Below, one piece after another: positions 767 through 21,728 of a stretch of 26,569 bases of DNA. The first letter of the stretch is position 1. The number at the start of each line of letters is the position of its first letter. Source of the DNA: Candidatus Taylorbacteria bacterium RIFCSPLOWO2_01_FULL_45_34b (GTDB lineage Bacteria; Patescibacteriota; Minisyncoccia; Phycocordibacterales; DSPV01); NCBI GenBank assembly GCA_001822675.1, contig MHRY01000044.1, positions 1-26,569 of the forward strand, written 5' to 3'. The notes under the pieces were generated by a model. The model was not told the DNA's origin and ran no database searches. It saw nothing but the letters and a program-made list of their open reading frames with translations. The position numbers and the translations under genes were made by a program.

Positions 767-792
767 AGCTACTGAAAAGGTTATTACAAATT

Positions 793-809
793 CCAAGGTT
801 CAACCTTGG
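793..809. repeat. REP-like palindrome CCAAGGTTCAACCTTGG
   Basis: Perfect 8-bp arms. Belongs to the AGGT-N-ACCT palindrome family also seen flanking the RAYT gene. Confidence 0.7.
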
Positions 810-813
810 AATG

Positions 814-1100: not shown

Positions 1101-1208
1101 TTAAGCATCTAACCCCCCTGTTCATGCTTATTTTCATGTAGACGATTGCCATTAGCAGCTGGCTCATGGTATTATTTTTACGTGACTGAAGAAGGAAAAC
1201 AGAAAATT

Positions 1209-1601
1209 ATGGCTATTGCTAAAAAATACAACCTTGCCTTGCTGGTGCTTTTCGGCTCGCGAGCAAGGGGCGATGCACTAGAAAAAAGTGATTTTGATGT
1301 TGCTTATTCCTCTATTGCACCCATGGATTTAGTCGAGGAAAGTGAAATGGCTGTAGAACTGCATGAAATTTTCAAGACAATCAATGTAGATATGGTAAAT
1401 CTATCGAACGCCAATCCCTTACTCATGAAAAAAATTGTTGATGAAGGTGTTGTTCTTTATGAGGCTAAGGAATCACTATTCAATAGTTTGTATTTATACG
1501 CGATGAGAATTTACCGCGAGTCAGAGTTTCTAAACAAAGTGCGCCGTGAATATGTACTAAGTAGAATTAATCAGCACAAAAAAGATGCCGCTCGAGCTTG
1601 A
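1209..1601 (+). CDS. mntA: MntA-type minimal nucleotidyltransferase (antitoxin of a HepT/MntA pair)
   Basis: LFGSRARGDALEKSDFDV matches the GSxxRG..DxD nucleotidyltransferase motif. RBS gaaggaaaa lies 13 nt before the ATG at 1209. The ORF could extend back to 1146. Overlaps the downstream HepT ORF by 17 nt. Confidence 0.72.
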   Translation: MAIAKKYNLALLVLFGSRARGDALEKSDFDVAYSSIAPMDLVEESEMAVELHEIFKTINVDMVNLSNANPLLMKKIVDEGVVLYEAKESLFNSLYLYAMRIYRESEFLNKVRREYVLSRINQHKKDAARA

Positions 1602-2019
1602 TAAAAATCTTATCACCAGGAAACTTGCTCTTCTCGATGGTTATATCGCCGAGTTGGAACCGATAGTGTCATTAACCGAGGAAGAAATTCTCAAAGATTC
1701 TCTGAAATTTCACGTGGCGGAAAGAATGTTTCAGCTTATTGTTGATGAAATGATTGATATAAATACCCACTTGATTCGGGTAAAAACATTAACACCGCCA
1801 GATGACATTCAGAGTACATTTACTGTCTTAGCGAAGGCTGGCATTTTACCCGCAGATTTCACCAAAAAAATTTCACCTGTCGTTGGTTTGCGTAACGCGG
1901 TTGTGCATCGCTATGAACATGTTAGTCTGGGGCGTTTTATCCATGAACTTAAACGTAACTTCGGTGATTTCAAAGACTATCTTATTCACATCAATTCTTT
2001 TATCGAAAAGGCTACATAG
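1585..2019 (+). CDS. hepT: HepT-type HEPN toxin (DUF86)
   Basis: 144 aa. C-terminal GLRNAVVHRYEHV is the Rx4HxY HEPN catalytic motif. Translationally coupled to the upstream nucleotidyltransferase. Confidence 0.8.
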   Translation: MPLELDKNLITRKLALLDGYIAELEPIVSLTEEEILKDSLKFHVAERMFQLIVDEMIDINTHLIRVKTLTPPDDIQSTFTVLAKAGILPADFTKKISPVVGLRNAVVHRYEHVSLGRFIHELKRNFGDFKDYLIHINSFIEKAT

Positions 2020-2065
2020 TTTAAGGCTTGGTATTGGATGGGAGATATTTGGGGGGTCTATTAAA

Positions 2066-2170
2066 AGAAAAAAGCGAGGGTTCCGAAGAACTCTCGCTTT
2101 ATGTTTCCCCGAGGCTAAGCCTAGGGAATTTGTTGGGAGAGGCGGTTAGTTTTTGGCTCGAAGCCAATTT
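2066..2170 (+). repeat. Full copy R4 of the ~105-bp three-hairpin repeat (hairpin B degenerate)
   Basis: aaaaaagcgagggttccgaagaactctcgcttt..ccccgaggctaagcctaggg..gttagtttttggctcgaagccaattt. Sits directly 3' of hepT. Confidence 0.75.
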
Positions 2171-2748
2171 ATGTGAGCTTCTCCCCCTTTGTCCGTGCCC
2201 CATCCTTTGAAAATCGTTGGAGATGGGTCTGCTGGATTGTCTGGTTCCAAAAACCATTCCCCGTGGTTTGGCGGAACTGGTTGTTGCCACACGCCGTTTG
2301 TGGCGTGGGCGAATTTGTTCCAAGTGAATTCAGCCCTCGTTCCATTCGGTAGGAATACCACGAAGTCGAACCTGACTTGGTCGTAGTATAGAATTTTCGC
2401 CGGATGGCTTTCTTTCCGAATGGTTGGGTCAAGTCCTCGCACATGTGGCAGCTTGCTCCACCCATACTCCCAATCCCGCATGGTCGGGTTCCTTGCCCGC
2501 ACTACAGTGGCGGCTTTTTGCCGTTCCTTTTCTTCTGCCAGGCTTTTTTCTTTCACTGTTTTCATGTCAGCCCAATCCTTCTTGATGATTGGTCGGGCTG
2601 ATAGCCAGCAGACTATGAATAGACCAAGGAAGATGACCCACTTTGTTTCCGTCTTGGCCTTAATTTTGTTTAGGCCATAACTGGTGAGCCAGAGGGTAAT
2701 AATTACCAATGCCACAACCTTCAGAATGTACAGGGCATCTGTTGTCAT
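2146..2748 (-). CDS. Hypothetical two-TM membrane protein, possible partner of the upstream SPFH protein
   Basis: ATG at 2748 overlaps the SPFH stop as ATGA. Two hydrophobic helices sit at the N-terminus and a soluble C-terminal domain follows. No recognisable motif. The 3' end overlaps repeat R4. Confidence 0.45.
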   Translation of the reverse strand: MTTDALYILKVVALVIITLWLTSYGLNKIKAKTETKWVIFLGLFIVCWLSARPIIKKDWADMKTVKEKSLAEEKERQKAATVVRARNPTMRDWEYGWSKLPHVRGLDPTIRKESHPAKILYYDQVRFDFVVFLPNGTRAEFTWNKFAHATNGVWQQPVPPNHGEWFLEPDNPADPSPTIFKGWGTDKGGEAHINWLRAKN

Positions 2749-3866
2749 GGTGTCCCTCCTCCCCGAGCCATCCATTTCTCGACAGCGTCCTTGAGAATGA
2801 CCGCGACGTTGGTGAGGTCGCCCCTTGTCTCCGTCCTAGTGATCTTGCCGAGTTGAGTTAAGACAATCCGGCTGGCTTCGTCATCGTTCATCTCGGGGAA
2901 CTTTTTCTTCAGTTCGGCAATAGCGTTTTGTATGAGCAAAACCTGCTCGTTGTCGGCCTCCCTTTTTTTCATCGCCCGCGTGACTGACTCGTAAGCTTTC
3001 GATGTGTCAGGGTCGAGATAATCAATCTTTGGAATGACCACGCCAATAATTTTTACACCGAGATGATCAATTGTCCGAACGCGCTCGTTCTCATCCATGT
3101 CGTCCTCGATTGCCTCCTTAACCTTTTTTTCCCAGTCGTCCCGTTTTTCCATAAACTCCAGGTCGCTGACCTCGGCGCCGCATTGGCGGAGGCTTTTGAT
3201 AGCTAGATCTCCAACTGTCCTTTCTACCGATTGCCCTTGCTTTTGCAACTCATCTTCGACGTTGAGGAAGTACCAAGGGTTGGTCACTTGCCAGCGGACA
3301 ACGATTCTTGCCTTCATAACCACCAGCCGTTTTTTTGATTTGCCGATGGAGTCAATAGTGTTGACCGTTAAAGGTTCACCATCTTCTTTTGGGATAGTGA
3401 GAACCTGGTGCTTTTGGCTGACGTTCTTTACGGTCATTATGAAGGGGAAGACCCATGTCCAACCCTCTTCAAATGCCTCTCCGGGCTTCCTTTTCTGTAG
3501 GATCCTTGGCACGCCATAGTTTCTTTCTGGTACCAAGTGAAGCCCCTGCTTCATGAGGACAAGGGAGAACAGGACTACAGCGATGCCAATGACCCAATCA
3601 AGACCGTTGCTGAGATACAAGATAATCAGTAGTGCTAAGATCATGGTCACTGTAGCCGCTATGCCATTCATAAGCCACTCCCGACTGTCCCAAACCGCTG
3701 TCTTTTTCAGGCGCTTTGGTTTGCGTTTAGGGGCTGGTGGCGTTCCTCCACCTCCTGCTGGTGCAGGGGCGGGGGGTGTTGGAGGTGTAGGAGTCGGGGG
3801 AGTCGGTGCTCCGGGTCCTGGTACAGGTGTTGGCGGAGTTCCTCCGCCTGGTGTTGGTGTTGCCAT
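2745..3866 (-). CDS. SPFH/band-7 (stomatin/prohibitin-like) membrane protein with a Pro/Thr/Gly-rich N-terminus
   Basis: 373 aa from the internal ATG at 3866. Low-complexity TPPTPTPPTPPAPAP tail, a KRKPKRLKK stretch, a TM segment, then a band-7-like core (FPFIMTVKNVSQKHQVLTIPKED ... VVRWQVTNP) with a C-terminal coiled-coil. The 5' extension to 3992 runs through a REP palindrome. Confidence 0.65.
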   Translation of the reverse strand: MATPTPGGGTPPTPVPGPGAPTPPTPTPPTPPAPAPAGGGGTPPAPKRKPKRLKKTAVWDSREWLMNGIAATVTMILALLIILYLSNGLDWVIGIAVVLFSLVLMKQGLHLVPERNYGVPRILQKRKPGEAFEEGWTWVFPFIMTVKNVSQKHQVLTIPKEDGEPLTVNTIDSIGKSKKRLVVMKARIVVRWQVTNPWYFLNVEDELQKQGQSVERTVGDLAIKSLRQCGAEVSDLEFMEKRDDWEKKVKEAIEDDMDENERVRTIDHLGVKIIGVVIPKIDYLDPDTSKAYESVTRAMKKREADNEQVLLIQNAIAELKKKFPEMNDDEASRIVLTQLGKITRTETRGDLTNVAVILKDAVEKWMARGGGTP

Positions 3867-3897
3867 ACTTTTTTCCTTTCTGGTATTTCTGAATTGG

Positions 3898-3912
3898 CTA
3901 GGTTGAACCTCG
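3898..3912. repeat. REP-like palindrome (aggttgaacct core)
   Basis: ctaGGTTGAACCtcg. The same core occurs at 4405-4417 with shared flank ccatcttt. Confidence 0.55.
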
Positions 3913-3988
3913 CCATCTTTTCTTTTTGCTGACTGACTTTCTCCAAAACAAATTGTCAAAGTTCCAACTCTGACAGAACAAAGCCCAT

Positions 3989-4005
3989 ACAAGGTTCGAC
4001 CTTGT
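3989..4005. repeat. REP-like palindrome ACAAGGTTCGACCTTGT
   Basis: 7-bp stem with a TCG loop. Same family as the hairpins flanking the RAYT gene. Confidence 0.7.
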
Positions 4006-4209
4006 AGTAAGACTAACTGAATCTACGAAAAGGTTAGCACGGTTTTATATAAAAGTCAATGGATTGGTTTATACCAAAAAACGCTTCTGTAGAGCCACTT
4101 TTATCCAGCCTAGTTTTTTGGTGATTCTGTTCATAACCCGCGTATTTCTCGCCGCACCATATGGCCCAATTTAACAAACCAATATAAAAAGTTTATCGAG
4201 GACTTATTT

Positions 4210-4226
4210 CCAAGGACTAACCTTGG
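4210..4226. repeat. REP-like palindrome CCAAGGACTAACCTTGG
   Basis: 6-bp arms with a 5-nt loop. A second copy lies at 4373-4388. Confidence 0.6.
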
Positions 4227-4250
4227 GTTTTACTTTGAAAGTGTTAGGTT

Positions 4251-4273
4251 ATGTCAAGGTTTAACCTTGACAT
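4251..4273. repeat. REP-like 23-bp palindrome ATGTCAAGGTTTAACCTTGACAT
   Basis: 11-bp perfect arms. Exact reverse-complement copy at 15474-15496. Confidence 0.75.
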
Positions 4274-4312
4274 ACTTTGTCATTTCCAGACACTTAATTT
4301 AGAGTTGTATTT

Positions 4313-4339
4313 CACCTTGGAGGTAAAACTTCCAAGGTG
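4313..4339. repeat. REP-like hairpin CACCTTGGA-N9-TCCAAGGTG
   Basis: 9-bp perfect arms with a 9-nt loop. Confidence 0.55.
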
Positions 4340-4372
4340 GGGGAATGGGATTTTTTTACAAGGACTTTTTTA

Positions 4373-4388
4373 CAAGGACTAACCTTGG
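4373..4388. repeat. REP-like palindrome CAAGGACTAACCTTGG
   Basis: Copy of the 4210 element. Preceded by the direct repeat acaaggact(t6)acaaggact. Confidence 0.55.
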
Positions 4389-4404
4389 ATTTTTGTAAAA
4401 TGGC

Positions 4405-4417
4405 GAGGTTGAACCTC
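4405..4417. repeat. REP-like palindrome GAGGTTGAACCTC
   Basis: 6-bp arms. The right flank catcatctttcc matches the flank of the 3898 copy. Confidence 0.55.
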
Positions 4418-4492
4418 ATCATCTTTCCGTGTTGTTTTATGTTTAAAAAGAAAGCCAACCGGATGGGTTGGCTTTCGGGCGAAGGGAAGAAC

Positions 4493-4861
4493 TTAGACAG
4501 CGATTTCCGCTCGGCGTGGCTTTTTGGCCACTTTTTCGAGCAGAGTCCTCACCTCTTGGAAGGTGAAGGGTTTGAGGAGGGGAATTGCTCCCACGGATGC
4601 GGCTTTTGCCGCCAAGTTCTCTGTTCTTCCGGACATGAGCACTTTGGGGATTTTCGGCCCCACTACTTTGAGAACGGTGAGCCCTTCATCAAGGCTTGGA
4701 ATATCGCAGTCGGAGATGACTAAATCCAGTCCTCCTTCCGCGATTTTTTCTTGTCCTTCCATGCCGTCTGCGGCCAGAATTGTCTCGTGCCCGAGCATTT
4801 GCAGGAAGTCTCCGAGAAGTTCCCGGATGTCGCCTTCGTCTTCAATTAATAGCACTTTCAT
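4493..4861 (-). CDS. Single-domain (CheY-like) response regulator receiver protein
   Basis: 122 aa. KVLLIEDE acidic pocket, DLVISDCDIP phospho-acceptor Asp, KVLMSG and LLKPF conserved Thr/Lys positions. No output domain and no adjacent kinase. Confidence 0.85.
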   Translation of the reverse strand: MKVLLIEDEGDIRELLGDFLQMLGHETILAADGMEGQEKIAEGGLDLVISDCDIPSLDEGLTVLKVVGPKIPKVLMSGRTENLAAKAASVGAIPLLKPFTFQEVRTLLEKVAKKPRRAEIAV

Positions 4862-4924: not shown

Positions 4925-4962
4925 ATACATCTAATTTACGCGGTCGCGTAAATTAGATGTAT
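4925..4962. promoter_or_regulatory. Perfect 18+18 bp inverted repeat (2-bp spacer), candidate operator or hairpin upstream of the response-regulator gene
   Basis: atacatctaatttacgcg-gt-cgcgtaaattagatgtat. Lies 64-101 bp upstream of the RR start and abuts a TTGACA-like hexamer on the minus strand. Confidence 0.5.
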
Positions 4963-6832: not shown

Positions 6833-7270
6833 GCGGAGAATATGATAGCATGTTTTCTTGTCATGCCAGCTACAACTTTTTCGATTTGAAAAGTCGCAGC
6901 CCCCGCCTCCTTACGCTTCGCTCCAGTCCGGCTCGGACATTGTGAAAAAGTATTGTCGTCACGAGTTACTAAGTATTTTGCTTCGACAACTCGCAAAATA
7001 CTAAGTGCTCGCGACCCCGCCTTGCCCGTTTTTGTTGGTACAAAAACATGGCTGCGGCTCGGACAAGATAGAAAAGTCTCAAGCAGTTGAGATTTTTCTA
7101 TCTTGTCCGCCCACCTGGATTCGGCCGCGACTCAAACCTCGCCGCCGCTCGGTTTGGTCTGGCCACCGCCTCGCGATTTTTGCTACTGCAAAAATATCGC
7201 TCCGGCGTTCGAATCCAGACACCCCGCAAGCAGTTGCGGGGTTGTGGGCGGCCAATATTCAGAAATATTG

Positions 7271-7342
7271 TCCGCCCACCTGGATTCGAACCAGGGACCT
7301 TACGCTTAAGAGGCGTTTGCTCTACCAACTGAGCTATGGGCG
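7271..7342 (-). tRNA. tRNA-Lys (anticodon CTT)
   Basis: Minus-strand read CCGCCCA-TA-GCTC-AGTTGGTA-GAGC-A-AACGC-CTCTTAA-GCGTA-AGGTC-CCTGG-TTCGAAT-CCAGG-TGGGCGG-A. Canonical cloverleaf. CCA is not encoded. Confidence 0.85.
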
Positions 7343-7451
7343 GAATTCTTATGTAGCCCATAGAGAAGTCCTAACTGCTTGCCCCGTAGTGAGCTTGCTC
7401 TACTACTGGGGAGCTATGGGCGGATTTGGAAAGTGTAAGATGAAAAATACA

Positions 7452-7604
7452 AAGTGTAAAGGTTTGGCCAAGCTCTCAAATGTTGTGCTGACGCCTCATA
7501 TTGCTTCCGGAACAATCGTCGCGAGGGAAGAAATGGCTCACATGGCGGCGGAGAACCTCATCGTCTTTTTTGAGGGTAAGGTGCCGCCAAATATAGTAAA
7601 GTAG
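7452..7604 (+). pseudogene. C-terminal remnant (~50 aa) of a D-isomer-specific 2-hydroxyacid dehydrogenase
   Basis: LAKLSNVVLTPHIASGTIVAREEMAHMAAENLIVFFEGKVPPNIV matches the conserved C-terminus of the D-2-hydroxyacid dehydrogenase family. No catalytic or NAD-binding domain lies upstream; the upstream DNA is tRNA-derived debris. Confidence 0.5.
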
Positions 7605-10734: not shown

Positions 10735-10751
10735 ACGAGGTCGAACCTCGT
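10735..10751. repeat. REP hairpin ACGAGGTCGAACCTCGT (outer, left of the RAYT element)
   Basis: 7-bp stem with a CGA loop. Confidence 0.7.
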
Positions 10752-10772
10752 CACCTATTTTTTGTGTTATAA

Positions 10773-10811
10773 TTATACCATAAAAAATCTCTCTACAAGG
10801 TTCGACCTCGT
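10773..10811 (+). repeat. Left flank module of the RAYT gene: 15-nt direct repeat ATTATACCATAAAAA + 7 nt + REP hairpin ACAAGGTTCGACCTCGT
   Basis: The same module (attataccataaaaa-N7-cgaggtcgaacctcg) recurs at 11478-11515 on the other side of the gene, in the same orientation. Confidence 0.75.
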
Positions 10812-11467
10812 TTTTCGTTGTAATGAAGCCAATCCCGTATTGTTGTCTCAAAATCTGCCACCGTTTCAAAATATCCTGGGAAAGCCTTGCGTTCAAGAAT
10901 AACTTTTTCCGGCCTGTCCACTAAAAGAAAGTCCTGATAACTTGAGTAGGAGTAGTTTTTAAGGAAGGAAAGGGCCTTCTTTTTATTCACGATGCCCGTT
11001 TCTTTCCACGTAGATTCAATCAGTTTGATTGGGTTTAGGTGGATATACGAAAATAAATATTTCATGTATTCGTCATTATCTGCGTATTCAGCTTTAAATT
11101 TTCCTTGGAAAAGTGCTCCCGTGCGTTCCTCTTTTGTATTAAAATACATAGTATAGGCTGTGGAGAGTTTTTGCATAAATTTACTGATTCCGCCTTCCAT
11201 TTTCTCCCGTACAAGAAGGTGGAAATGATTTGGCATACAACAGTATGTTCCTATATCAATAATAGTTTTTTCTCGGTCTTGGCCGAGCATAGAATTGAGT
11301 GACCAATCAGAGTTGGTAATATGAACCGGGTTTGTACTATTGCACATATAAAGAAGTCCGATAAAACGTTTGTAATCACGATCAGCATTAAAAATTTTTC
11401 TTTTGTCCGTGCCTCTGTTATAGACATGGTAGTATCCATCTATAGAGATTTCAATATTTCTGGTCAT
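10793..11467 (-). CDS. REP-associated tyrosine transposase (RAYT; IS200-like Y1 HUH transposase family)
   Basis: 224 aa. YHVYNRG ... CMPNHFHLLV (HuH) ... GALFQGKFKA ... YIHLNPIK ... YSYSSYQDF (catalytic Tyr region). The motif order and spacing match the RAYT/TnpA_REP branch rather than the short IS200 TnpA. Flanked on both sides by REP hairpins. Confidence 0.85.
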   Translation of the reverse strand: MTRNIEISIDGYYHVYNRGTDKRKIFNADRDYKRFIGLLYMCNSTNPVHITNSDWSLNSMLGQDREKTIIDIGTYCCMPNHFHLLVREKMEGGISKFMQKLSTAYTMYFNTKEERTGALFQGKFKAEYADNDEYMKYLFSYIHLNPIKLIESTWKETGIVNKKKALSFLKNYSYSSYQDFLLVDRPEKVILERKAFPGYFETVADFETTIRDWLHYNEKRGRTL

Positions 11468-11477
11468 GTGAGAAAAT

Positions 11478-11515
11478 ATTATACCATAAAAAGTGTGTTT
11501 CGAGGTCGAACCTCG
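11478..11515 (+). repeat. Right flank module of the RAYT gene (direct repeat + REP hairpin CGAGGTCGAACCTCG)
   Basis: attataccataaaaag-tgtgttt-cgaggtcgaacctcg. Read on the minus strand, the direct repeat gives TGGTATAAT, an extended -10, 10 nt upstream of the RAYT ATG. Confidence 0.75.
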
Positions 11516-15473: not shown

Positions 15474-15496
15474 ATGTCAAGGTTAAACCTTGACAT
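15474..15496. repeat. REP-like 23-bp palindrome ATGTCAAGGTTAAACCTTGACAT
   Basis: Exact reverse complement of the copy at 4251-4273. Confidence 0.75.
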
Positions 15497-15625
15497 AAGA
15501 CATAATGTTGATGTTTTTGGGATTTTAATGTCGCCTTAGCTCAGCCCCGACGCTTACGGCAAGTGGGGAGCCGACCAAGGCGTCGGCTTTGGTACCCGCC
15601 CGAACGACTGGACAAAATTAATATC

Positions 15626-16572: not shown

Positions 16573-18531
16573 ATGAAAATTTCTCACAACTGGCTGCAAG
16601 ATTATTTTGATAAGGAATTACCCTCACCGGAAAAATTGGCAGAGCTTTTGAACGCGCACGTTTTTGAAGTTGAGGGCTTGGATAAAGTACACGAAGACAC
16701 AATTCTCGATGTAAAAGTGCTTCCAGACAGAGCTCATTACGCCCTGTCTCATTTTGGTATCGCCTATGAAGTTTCCGCTATCACTGGAATTCCGTTAAAA
16801 AAGGAAAGAGATTTAACTGTTACATTAGGGAAGCAGACTGCGCCGAAAGTCACAGTTGAGGACGAAAAAGTATGCCGCCGATACATGGCGCGGGTTGTCG
16901 AAGGAATCGGTAAAGCCGAAACACCGAAAATTATAAAGGAAAGACTTGCCGCTATCGGCCAACGTTCGATCAATCCAATTGTTGATCTTGCAAACTACAC
17001 GATGTTTGATGTCGGCCAGCCGCTTCACGCCTTTGATGCGGATAAAGTAAAAGGAGGAATCACAGTACGAAAAGCGAAAGCGGGTGAGAAAATTACCACG
17101 CTTGATAATAAGGACGTTGCTCTTTCCGCGGACATTTTGGTTATCGCGGATGATGTGGGCCCGCTTGCCATCGCGGGCATCAAGGGCGGCAAGCGGGCCG
17201 AAGTGGATTCAAACACAAAACGAATTATTTTAGAATCTGCCACGTTTGATCCAGTTTTGATTAGGAAAACGGCGACTGCTTTAAACATCAAAACCGATGC
17301 TTCAAAGCGGTTTGAAAATAACATGCCGCCAGCCGGCGCGTTTCTTGGCATACTGCATTTTTCAAAGCGACTGGAAGATATTTTTGGCGACTCGATTTCT
17401 TTTAGCCCCTTCACTGATATATATCCTGTTCACACGGAAGATAGAACCATAGAGATAGATCTTGATTTTATTCACGCCAAACTCGGGGCAAAAGTGTCGG
17501 AAAAAGAAGTGATTGAAATTCTTGGGCGACTTTATCTTAAAGCAGAAAATAAGAAGGGTAGGTTAGTTGTTACTGTTCCAGCATGGCGTCAGGATGTTGT
17601 CATTCCTGAGGATGCTGTCGAAGAAGTTGGACGGCTGTACGGCTATGAAAAAATAAAGCCAATCGTGCCGCCGAAAGTAAAAGGGGATTTGCCTCTTAAC
17701 AAAAATTTCTACTACGCGAACAAAATCAAACTCATTTTGGCAAACCACGGCTTTTCAGAAATTTACACTTCAACCTTTGATAAAGTGGGTGAGCGGGAAG
17801 TACTCTATCCTGTGGCGTCAGATAAAAATTTTTTGCGGACGGAATTGACAAAGTCAATGGCGAAGGCACTCGAGTTCAATCTTCGAAATACCGACCTCCT
17901 TAATCTCAATCAAATCAAGCTTTTTGAAATTGGTAAAATTTTCAAAGATGGGAAGGAGATTAATTCTTTAGTTGTTGGTATTACAAACACCAAAAGTATT
18001 AAAACTAAAGTAAATGATTTAATTCGAGATGCGCGTGAAATGCTCATAAAAGAGTTAGGAGCCGATGTTCAAACGGTTTGCACTATTGATGACAGTGGGG
18101 GACTGCTTCTTCTTGGAGGCCAGCAAATTGGTACCATAAATGCCATCGATGGGGTTATGGAAGTGAATCTTGACCTGTTTATTGCTTCTCTGCCCGATCC
18201 GAAAGGCTCAACCTTACAGACTGTAAGGTTGAGCCTTTCGAGTCTTGTTTACAGACCGTTTTCAAAGTACCCATTTATCGTTCGAGATGTTGCTATCTTT
18301 GTGCCGGAAAGTACAAAAGTGGTTGAAGTTCTTGCGGTAATCAAAAAAGAAACCAGTACGTTACTTGTAAATGATTATCTGTTCGACGAATTCAAAAAAG
18401 GTGACAAAATTTCTTACGCCTTCCGCCTCGTCTTTCAATCTTTCGAAAAAACACTGACCGATGATGAGGTGAATAGGATTATGAAAAAAGTAGCCGCGGC
18501 AGTCACAGCAATGGGATGGCAGGTGAGATAA
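16573..18531 (+). CDS. pheT: Phenylalanine--tRNA ligase beta subunit (short, ~650 aa)
   Basis: MKISHNWLQDYF start. B3/B4 and B5 domain-like regions and a C-terminal anticodon-binding-like FDEFKKGDKISYAFRLVFQ. Start lies 2 nt after the pheS stop. Confidence 0.88.
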   Translation: MKISHNWLQDYFDKELPSPEKLAELLNAHVFEVEGLDKVHEDTILDVKVLPDRAHYALSHFGIAYEVSAITGIPLKKERDLTVTLGKQTAPKVTVEDEKVCRRYMARVVEGIGKAETPKIIKERLAAIGQRSINPIVDLANYTMFDVGQPLHAFDADKVKGGITVRKAKAGEKITTLDNKDVALSADILVIADDVGPLAIAGIKGGKRAEVDSNTKRIILESATFDPVLIRKTATALNIKTDASKRFENNMPPAGAFLGILHFSKRLEDIFGDSISFSPFTDIYPVHTEDRTIEIDLDFIHAKLGAKVSEKEVIEILGRLYLKAENKKGRLVVTVPAWRQDVVIPEDAVEEVGRLYGYEKIKPIVPPKVKGDLPLNKNFYYANKIKLILANHGFSEIYTSTFDKVGEREVLYPVASDKNFLRTELTKSMAKALEFNLRNTDLLNLNQIKLFEIGKIFKDGKEINSLVVGITNTKSIKTKVNDLIRDAREMLIKELGADVQTVCTIDDSGGLLLLGGQQIGTINAIDGVMEVNLDLFIASLPDPKGSTLQTVRLSLSSLVYRPFSKYPFIVRDVAIFVPESTKVVEVLAVIKKETSTLLVNDYLFDEFKKGDKISYAFRLVFQSFEKTLTDDEVNRIMKKVAAAVTAMGWQVR

Positions 18532-21247: not shown

Positions 21248-21642
21248 GGGTGACCTTTCGAAGTTAGGCAAACTCTGGGATGAAGGGGAGATCTTTGCTG
21301 TCGATTCCCATGACTTGGGAAGCCGTGAAAGCTTGACCTCCCCCAAGCGCTTTGAGAGTTGTTTCTTTCGTGTGGTGTCCCTAGAGGACAAGGTACTCCG
21401 GATGTTTTGGGTGCTGACTTACCTCGGTCATAAGGTTGGTGGCAAACTTTCCCACTTCTGTTTGGTGCCATGTCCGACCTTTTCGGTGGAGAACGGTCAT
21501 TTTCAGTTCGTGGCGGTTCTTTTCGATCTGCATTCGCATCAAGTTCGTGGATTTTTTCTGGGTTTCTTGGTTTTGGTAGCCTCAACAGGCTGTTTCTTCT
21601 GAAGAAAGGCTAACATGAATATAAAGGTATATCAAGTAGAAT

Positions 21643-21676
21643 GAACCCCCGCTTCGCGAACGCGAAGCGGGGGTTC
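21643..21676 (+). terminator. Perfect 16-bp-stem palindromic terminator
   Basis: gaacccccgcttcgcg-aa-cgcgaagcgggggttc followed by atctttctttt. Lies between convergent transcription units. Confidence 0.7.
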
Positions 21677-21728
21677 ATCTTTCTTTTATACTTTATACTA
21701 ATACTTGATACGCTATACGTTCCTTGGT

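Follow-up and report, generated by a model that had tools for sequence, protein, structure and literature searches.

A cluster of REP-like palindromes and a RAYT-like transposase gene in the genome of a Candidatus Taylorbacteria population

The DNA considered here, a 26,569-nt stretch of contig MHRY01000044.1 analyzed at its full length (the window), comes from a Candidatus Taylorbacteria population of the Rifle aquifer. Within it, a gap of ~550 bp lies between a gene for an SPFH/Band_7 protein (2745-3866, minus strand) and a response-regulator gene encoding a CheY-like receiver (4493-4861, minus strand). This gap holds eight palindromes, and a gene for a Y1/HUH transposase resembling tyrosine transposases of the REP-associated kind (RAYTs) lies 6.3 kb from them, inside the same window. 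In our reading, which we regard as highly probable, the gap is a cluster of repetitive extragenic palindromic (REP) sequences, the non-autonomous partners of the transposase encoded at 10793-11467, and the two belong to one REP/RAYT system.

An initial annotation of the locus had seen no credible open reading frame (ORF) in the gap, and our searches agree. The ORFs in the gap are all 48 aa or shorter and have no Pfam matches, gene callers placed no gene there on 13 independent contigs, and no conserved protein-coding gene occupies it. The lone extra gene call, a 69-aa ORF on contig L009 that corresponds to window 3707-3916, mainly covers the SPFH N-terminus. An intrinsic terminator closes the response-regulator gene; the cluster proper therefore extends over ~3896-4417, and it must contain the promoter and 5′ leader of the SPFH gene. 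A promoter scan of the minus strand returned nothing convincing for the SPFH gene, and an Rfam search of the gap gave no match (best E = 0.98). The response regulator next to the gap consists of a receiver domain alone and has no DNA-binding domain. We also set aside a replication origin, parS, and a CRISPR array as readings of the gap, given a monotonic GC skew, uneven spacing, and no DnaA-box array on reading the sequence (no formal search was made).

All eight hairpin palindromes that had been listed for the gap were found, between 3896 and 4417 (Table 1). Six of them share the core C[A/G]AGG-N5-CCT[T/C]G (at 3898, 3990, 4211, 4255, 4373, and 4404). The units are 13 to 27 nt in size, with stems of 5 to 12 bp and loops of 1 to 5 nt, except for the atypical unit 6, whose loop is 10 nt. 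In this unit the REP half-sites are permuted, in the order right half, spacer, left half, and it may be the remnant of a REP-doublet junction. At least four loop subfamilies (TTGAA, TTCGA, ACTAA, and TTTAA) are mixed in the cluster, and the centre-to-centre spacings are ~60, 33, 221, 44, 64, 54, and 31 bp. The sequence GTAG stands immediately 3′ of the palindrome at three units, and GTAA at one, and there it belongs to a longer TAC...GTA stem. With cores that are so nearly perfect palindromes, the orientation of the units is not reliably assignable, and the pairing of unit 1 with unit 8 over a long range in the predicted fold is trivial for the same reason.

The palindromes are strongly enriched over shuffled sequence. 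Between 3890 and 4420, AGG-N5-CCT was observed six times against 0.13 expected (5000 dinucleotide shuffles, maximum 3), and perfect palindromes with a stem of at least 5 number 10 against 2.1 ± 1.4, a count reached by none of 2000 dinucleotide shuffles. Across the whole window, AGGTTNAACCT with at most one mismatch occurs 11 times where 1.1 are expected, and CAAGGN5CCTTG eight times where 1.0 is expected. Fold prediction, proposed by the initial annotation as a check, showed single strands more stable than their shuffles (z = -4.5 for the plus strand as DNA and z = -4.7 for the minus strand as RNA), that is, a region that folds ~4.5 standard deviations better than shuffled sequence on both strands.

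Part of the cluster is built by local duplication, as seen in repeats of 40 nt and 43 nt and in a tandem repeat of 14 nt. Unit 4 is the first copy of the duplicated 40-nt segment and unit 7 the second; the palindromes at 4210 and 4373, described earlier as copies, lie in 33-nt stretches (4199-4231 and 4361-4393) that are 91% identical, with 85% identity across the 40 nt. The core of unit 7 is preceded by the 14-nt tandem duplication (tttttACAAGGACT twice), and the string acaaggact, also reported as tandemly duplicated, is present at 4358-4366 and again at 4372-4380. As the 14-nt tandem repeat occurs in both 40-nt copies, it is older than their duplication. Units 1 and 8 with their flanks form 26-nt copies (3895-3920 and 4401-4426) of 88% identity, so that the flank said to be shared at 3898 and 4405 holds up in substance, although the common string is CATCTTT and not exactly ccatcttt.

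The cluster also has close copies elsewhere in the window. The segment 3988-4002, in unit 3, is an exact 15-nt copy of 10794-10808, in the REP at the 3′ flank of the transposase gene, and 16 of 17 positions agree between 3992-4008 and 10748-10732. At unit 5, bases 4249-4273 are the exact 25-nt reverse complement of 15474-15498.

Table 1. Palindromic units, the transposase gene, and associated features in the window
Feature	Position	Strand	Sequence and remarks
Dispersed REP	790-812		ATTCCAAGGTTCAACCTTGGAAT; just past a gene end
REP unit 1, subfamily A	3896-3914		GGCT-AGGTTGAACCT-CGCC; 34-44 nt upstream of the SPFH start codon
REP unit 2, degenerate D type	3954-3975		TGTCAAAGTT-CC-AACTCTGACA; likeness to 4252-4272 judged by eye
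REP unit 3, subfamily B	3988-4006		TACAAGGTTCGACCTTGTA then G (GTAG tail)
REP unit 4, subfamily C	4192-4231	+	Core CCAAGGACTAACCTTGG at 4210-4226; partial left-arm copy AGGACTT before the core
REP unit 5, subfamily D	4250-4274		TATGTCAAGGTTTAACCTTGACATA; perfect palindrome, 12-bp arms
Unit 6, permuted	4313-4339		CACCTTGGAGGTAAAACTTCCAAGGTG; hairpin CACCTTGG-AGGTAAAACT-TCCAAGGTG
REP unit 7, subfamily C'	4353-4393	+	Core CAAGGACTAACCTTG at 4373-4387
REP unit 8, subfamily A'	4397-4426		ATGGC-GAGGTTGAACCTC-ATCATCTTT; palindrome 4405-4417; directly abuts unit 7
Intrinsic terminator of the response-regulator gene	4450-4476	-	11-bp stem, then a T run; not a REP; right-hand edge of the cluster
Second downstream REP of the RAYT gene	10735-10751		ACGAGGTCGAACCTCGT; inverted pair with 10794-10810, 44 nt apart
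RAYT-like Y1/HUH transposase gene, 224 aa	10793-11467	-	Motifs, Pfam, NCBIfam, and structure match
REP over the RAYT stop codon	10794-10810		Minus strand reads CGAGGTCGAACCTTGTAG and encodes ...RGRTL*
REP upstream of the RAYT gene	11501-11515		CGAGGTCGAACCTCG on the plus strand; just upstream of a TGgTATAAT promoter-like box
Dispersed D-type REP	15474-15498		Upstream of tRNA-Thr; exact copy of unit 5
Perfect 41-nt palindrome, 20-bp arms	18200-18240		Two inverted REP-like units, AAGGCTCAACCTT / AAGGTTGAGCCTT, inside the pheT frame

The transposase carries its HUH motif in MPNHFHLLV (HFH, residues 81-83) and its catalytic-type Tyr motif in YIHLNP (Y141), and both are invariant in 34 homologues. 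It scores 39.9 bits against Pfam Y1_Tnp (gathering score 23), and its only NCBIfam match is NF047646, the REP-associated tyrosine transposase. A sequence search of the protein against the PDB gave nothing significant, and only the fold search was informative: with an AlphaFold model of the protein (pLDDT, the predicted local distance difference test score, 87), the top match was 4er8_A, the Escherichia coli RAYT with a bound REP hairpin (E = 5.6e-5), followed by the TnpA structures of IS608 and ISDra2. On 23 of 23 contigs read, this exact protein has one and the same genomic context, through which assemblies run straight, and no tnpB-like ORF adjoins the gene; paralogues for the other REP subfamilies may exist elsewhere in the genome.

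Palindromes of the same family flank the transposase gene on both sides. On the strand of the gene, the loop of the upstream REP reads TTCGA, that of the first downstream REP is the inverse, TCGAA, and the second downstream REP is in direct orientation. Such a layout of REPs around RAYT genes has been described by Nunvar et al., and REPs near, or immediately after, the rayt stop codon have been noted as well (PMC2817692). As a further observation at this gene, a promoter-like box, ttttatggtataat (TGnTATAAT), lies upstream of the start (11473-11495) and is repeated after the stop (10768-10790), where it sits between the two downstream REPs; with the box on both sides, the gene is bracketed by "REP plus box" modules.

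Counted with a loose 15-mer definition, 12 of the 16 units in the window fall in the 19% of it that is non-coding (binomial P = 2e-6), the exceptions being at the RAYT stop codon and in the interior of pheT. The units are mostly extragenic, a property by which REPs are recognized. In pheT, the palindrome is translated as DPKGSTLQTVRLSLS, within the linker that precedes the FDX-ACB domain, and a relative (P0246) has a similar REP-like peptide, STRSDLVIQGRTLL, at the same site; because the linker is equally long in relatives, the palindrome is not demonstrated to be an insertion.

Comparison with other genomes was possible in two ways, through the locus and through the transposase. At the locus, the gap is 100% identical on 13 contigs that stem from different samples of the Rifle aquifer, and these contigs are therefore uninformative on the presence or absence of units. 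A search with the SPFH protein found one relative only, probably due to its Pro-rich N-terminus, and there the upstream region is 130 nt long and the neighbour genes differ. The nearest genomes, reached via a spermidine-synthase-like gene (64-66% identity), keep the outer synteny and have different genes between it and the pilin genes; no orthologue of the response-regulator/SPFH junction was present in the nearest genomes examined. In a 66%-identical relative, the segment from the spermidine-synthase-like gene to the type IV secretion system (T4SS) pilin cluster is wholly different (window 1146-4861 compared with L059:4250-9508): the window has the response regulator, the SPFH gene, a 200-aa ORF, HepT/MNT, and HicA, and the relative has four unrelated ORFs. 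With no orthologous junction and with different genes in relatives, the cluster thus belongs to a variable island with many toxin-antitoxin genes, and has those for HepT/MNT and HicA beside it. The motif is missing from the ~40 kb examined of the closest relatives that have no RAYT in view (L057-L059).

The transposase family is widespread in Patescibacteria, with more than 7,800 matches at E ≤ 1e-5 among 8,000 candidates. We retrieved homologue loci via the protein alone and then read their flanks for palindromes. At 30 of 53 RAYT-homologue loci, among them nearly all of those with at least 40% identity, a matched lineage-specific palindrome was found on both flanks, for example GTCAAGGTTCAACCTTGAC (L014), AGCAAGGCGTCGCCTTGCT (L016), GTGTAAGGGGAGCCCTTACAC (L017), and AGAGGCCTGGCCTCT (L034). 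An AGG...CCT stem is common to many of these flanks, and protein and palindrome therefore travel together. Subfamilies of the cluster recur in other genomes: on L014 the RAYT homologue has the D-type core at its flanks, on L080 a 48%-identical RAYT is bordered by the B-type 19-mer of unit 3, and on L143 the C-type core of unit 4 forms an inverted doublet. Two homologues (P0128 and one on L072, 63% and 56% identical to the window protein) have the gene order LepA-MurJ-TPR-(~700-nt gap)-RAYT in common (L072:3309-10678), a shared neighbourhood that suggests a chromosomal position conserved in that lineage, and vertical inheritance. The ~700-nt gap before the RAYT gene on L072 resembles a structured RNA gene, not a REP cluster.

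A metagenome scan for two CAAGGN5CCTTG cores 3 to 33 nt apart returned at least 120 contigs with such doublets, mostly inverted and thus like REPINs (REP doublets forming hairpins), where chance would yield a few tens by a rough estimate. Among the matches listed, 20 doublet contigs also encode a RAYT homologue.

Many of these doublets lie in coding sequence. Among the matches listed, 45 of 129 doublets sit in open frames of at least 200 aa, and for 23 of these the distance is 60 residues or more to the start of the frame and 30 or more to its end. Ten host frames were identified with NCBIfam as full-length ArgRS, PurL, TypA, LepA (two), IF-2 (two), ComEC, UvrA, and PriA, with matches that extend on both sides of the doublet. 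The lepA doublets occur on three contigs, two of them at one site, and those in infB on two; argS, purL, typA, comEC, uvrA, and priA carry the others. The contigs with these in-frame doublets are L072 (4544-4592, lepA), L087, L092, L116, L132, L159, L162, L172, L177, L187, and L191. The peptides encoded by the in-frame doublets recur as QGxxL and [SPA]RxxL. In lepA of L072, a perfect 49-nt palindrome of two REPs corresponds to a 12-residue in-frame insertion relative to EF4 of Thermus thermophilus. In this respect alone the doublets resemble the Rickettsia palindromic elements (PMC10969869), which are likewise palindromic repeats in frame inside housekeeping genes; those elements differ in being ~150 bp long and having no known dedicated transposase, whereas the doublets here are 35 to 60 bp and belong to a RAYT-associated family.

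The initial annotation had further proposed that REP units in the gap were locally amplified by RAYT activity. This proposal is supported by the presence of a RAYT gene in the window, by palindromes of the same family at its flanks, and by the exact 15-nt copy in unit 3. As for mechanism, what is known of TnpA-REP of E. coli and TnpA of IS608 suggests that an HUH/Y1 enzyme would recognize the CAAGG...CCTTG hairpin in single-stranded DNA, for example at a replication fork, and would cut and rejoin the strand beside the hairpin. REP units would in this way be copied or moved, preferentially beside existing units, and clusters could arise in tolerant intergenic DNA. By the same analogy, the enzyme would act on the hairpins of this cluster, with a presumed cleavage site and strand like those of its characterized counterparts, and the cluster may affect transcription of the SPFH operon.

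Several observations weigh against reading the gap as part of a REP/RAYT system. The GT[AG]G head 5′ of the palindrome, a classical REP trait, is present at no unit, and of the four or more loop subfamilies in the cluster, one alone closely matches the flanks of the RAYT gene. The score of the transposase against NF047646, 39.4 bits, is far under the equivalog cut-off of 80. REPs usually exceed 100 copies per genome (PMC2817692); the count here, over ~32 kb of genome in all, is 16 units for the 26.5 kb of the window and zero for the 5.5 kb that adjoin its start. The identity of the 13 contigs means that there is no sign of ongoing movement. Across the family, flank orientation is mixed (11 inverted, 16 direct), and many related genomes show palindromes at the two gene flanks alone, like the ends of an insertion sequence. 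The last points would fit a Y1 gene that is an ordinary IS200/IS605-type insertion sequence, with the cluster a graveyard of solo ends or of derivatives like miniature inverted-repeat transposable elements. Membership of Pfam Y1_Tnp and the rank of the IS608 and ISDra2 enzymes as next-best structures are in keeping with this, as is the direct orientation, that of IS200/IS605 ends, in 16 of the 30 matched loci. The missing 5′ GTAG head, the shorter core, the longer and divergent protein, the flank-only palindromes, and the mixed orientation keep such an explanation alive. We nevertheless consider it unlikely, because the gene has a single genomic context on the 23 contigs read and no adjoining tnpB, the same palindrome stands at both flanks instead of distinct left and right ends, and the 26.5 kb contain at least 13 more units that have no transposase with them. 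The LepA-MurJ-TPR neighbourhood common to two homologues, with the vertical inheritance it suggests, also argues against it, and the best structural and NCBIfam matches are to RAYTs and not to an IS200 TnpA.

Two other explanations leave transposition aside. If the hairpins were RNA elements, the region would encode either a structured non-coding RNA or the SPFH gene's 5′ leader, in a long and structured form; the z-score of the minus-strand RNA is in keeping with this, the SPFH transcript probably starts inside the cluster, and such a role would be compatible with a REP origin. Yet it is the palindromes that give the stability, and they fold as well on one strand as on the other; Rfam has no match, and the nearest relatives have no homologous region in which conservation or covariation could be read, so that we judge an RNA function very improbable. 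Palindromes of 15 bp with a centre of 1 to 5 nt also have the typical geometry of operators for a dimeric transcription factor, and an array of them might regulate the SPFH operon or the response-regulator gene; the units sit where the SPFH promoter must be, and others are promoter-proximal at 11501 and 15474. Against this stand the adjacent response regulator, with no domain to bind DNA, a motif that overlaps the transposase stop codon and is also found inside pheT, its covariation across genomes with the Y1 gene that it flanks, and, unlike operators, inverted doublets inside essential coding genes of related genomes. We regard an operator array as the least probable of the explanations weighed here, and a remote one.

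The REP/RAYT reading is best judged beside the systems already described. Clustered extragenic palindromes and an HUH/Y1 gene flanked by the same palindromes are shared with REPs, bacterial interspersed mosaic elements (BIMEs), and the RAYT (TnpA-REP, yafM; 4er8) of E. coli. The core here is 15 nt (CAAGG-N5-CCTTG) compared with about 35 nt, without the 5′ GTAG head, and the protein has 224 aa compared with 165 aa, is ~10% identical to 4er8, and falls below the NCBIfam RAYT cut-off. The host here is a member of the Patescibacteria (Candidate Phyla Radiation, CPR). BIMEs are defined by regularly spaced REPs in alternating orientation with conserved linkers (PMC2817692). The description of the gap as BIME-like is accordingly right in that this is a REP cluster, which is however not a BIME in the strict sense: spacing is uneven, no alternation of orientation is definable, conserved linker motifs are missing, and several loop subfamilies are present. 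The REPINs of Pseudomonas fluorescens, where a RAYT that is single-copy and vertically inherited spreads REPs as singlets and as inverted doublets, offer another likeness (PMC3116915, PMC5581495). REPIN-like inverted pairs do occur in the window, at 18200-18240 and at the RAYT 3′ flank (10735-10810), but this is not the arrangement inside the cluster, which consists mostly of singlets of several loop subfamilies. REPINs have moreover been described as extragenic (PMC3116915, PMC5581495), whereas many doublets of the CAAGG-N5-CCTTG family are inside coding genes. With IS200/IS605 elements (IS608 and ISDra2 TnpA) the transposase shares the Y1/HUH catalytic core, and recognition of a sub-terminal DNA hairpin, as in those elements, is the chemistry presumed here; the one genomic context, the lack of a tnpB partner, the identical flank palindromes, and the many orphan palindromes set it apart.

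REP, BIME, and RAYT are already well known; the family-wide picture and the in-frame doublets could interest specialists. REP/RAYT systems have been characterized mostly in Proteobacteria, and our full-text searches of the literature found no paper treating RAYT, REP, or REPIN together with this bacterial group. Tentatively, and with somewhat more doubt than confidence, we suggest that there may be an undescribed clade of RAYTs (~220 aa) throughout the Patescibacteria, of which the cluster would be one piece, with REP or REPIN partners that have an AGG/CCT-type stem (often CAAGG...CCTTG) and lineage-specific loops and that, unlike classical REPs, often lie in frame inside essential genes. Two loop subfamilies of the cluster flank RAYTs of other genomes, and if the clade is real, the four subfamilies in one gap would make it a landing site for several RAYT lineages, present or past. 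Patescibacteria have genomes of ~1 Mb, in which hardly any DNA is to spare. An intergenic gap of 550 bp filled with selfish palindromes, together with an intact dedicated transposase, would mean that such replicators persist under strong genome reduction. A Y1 gene with matched CAAGG...CCTTG flanks could serve as a marker that aids annotation, explains assembly breaks, and helps to interpret odd insertions of 12 to 16 residues in conserved proteins of Patescibacteria.

The window contains further palindromes outside this family. A second family is represented by TTGGCTCGAAGCCAA, present three times (64-78, 1083-1097, and 2153-2167), and by the related CCGAGGCGGAGCCTCGG type (18-34 and 1026-1044); most of these palindromes are at the ends of genes, and they may act as terminators or form a further REP-like family. 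Two unrelated perfect palindromes of 38 nt with 18-bp arms lie at 4925-4962 and 21641-21678, the former between tRNA-Leu and the start codon of the response-regulator gene, close upstream of that codon. A mechanically predicted ORF of 199 aa (7005-7604, plus strand) overlaps tRNA-Lys (7270-7343, minus strand), and gene callers differ between contigs. Several assemblies break at window positions ~1, 10130, and 14861.

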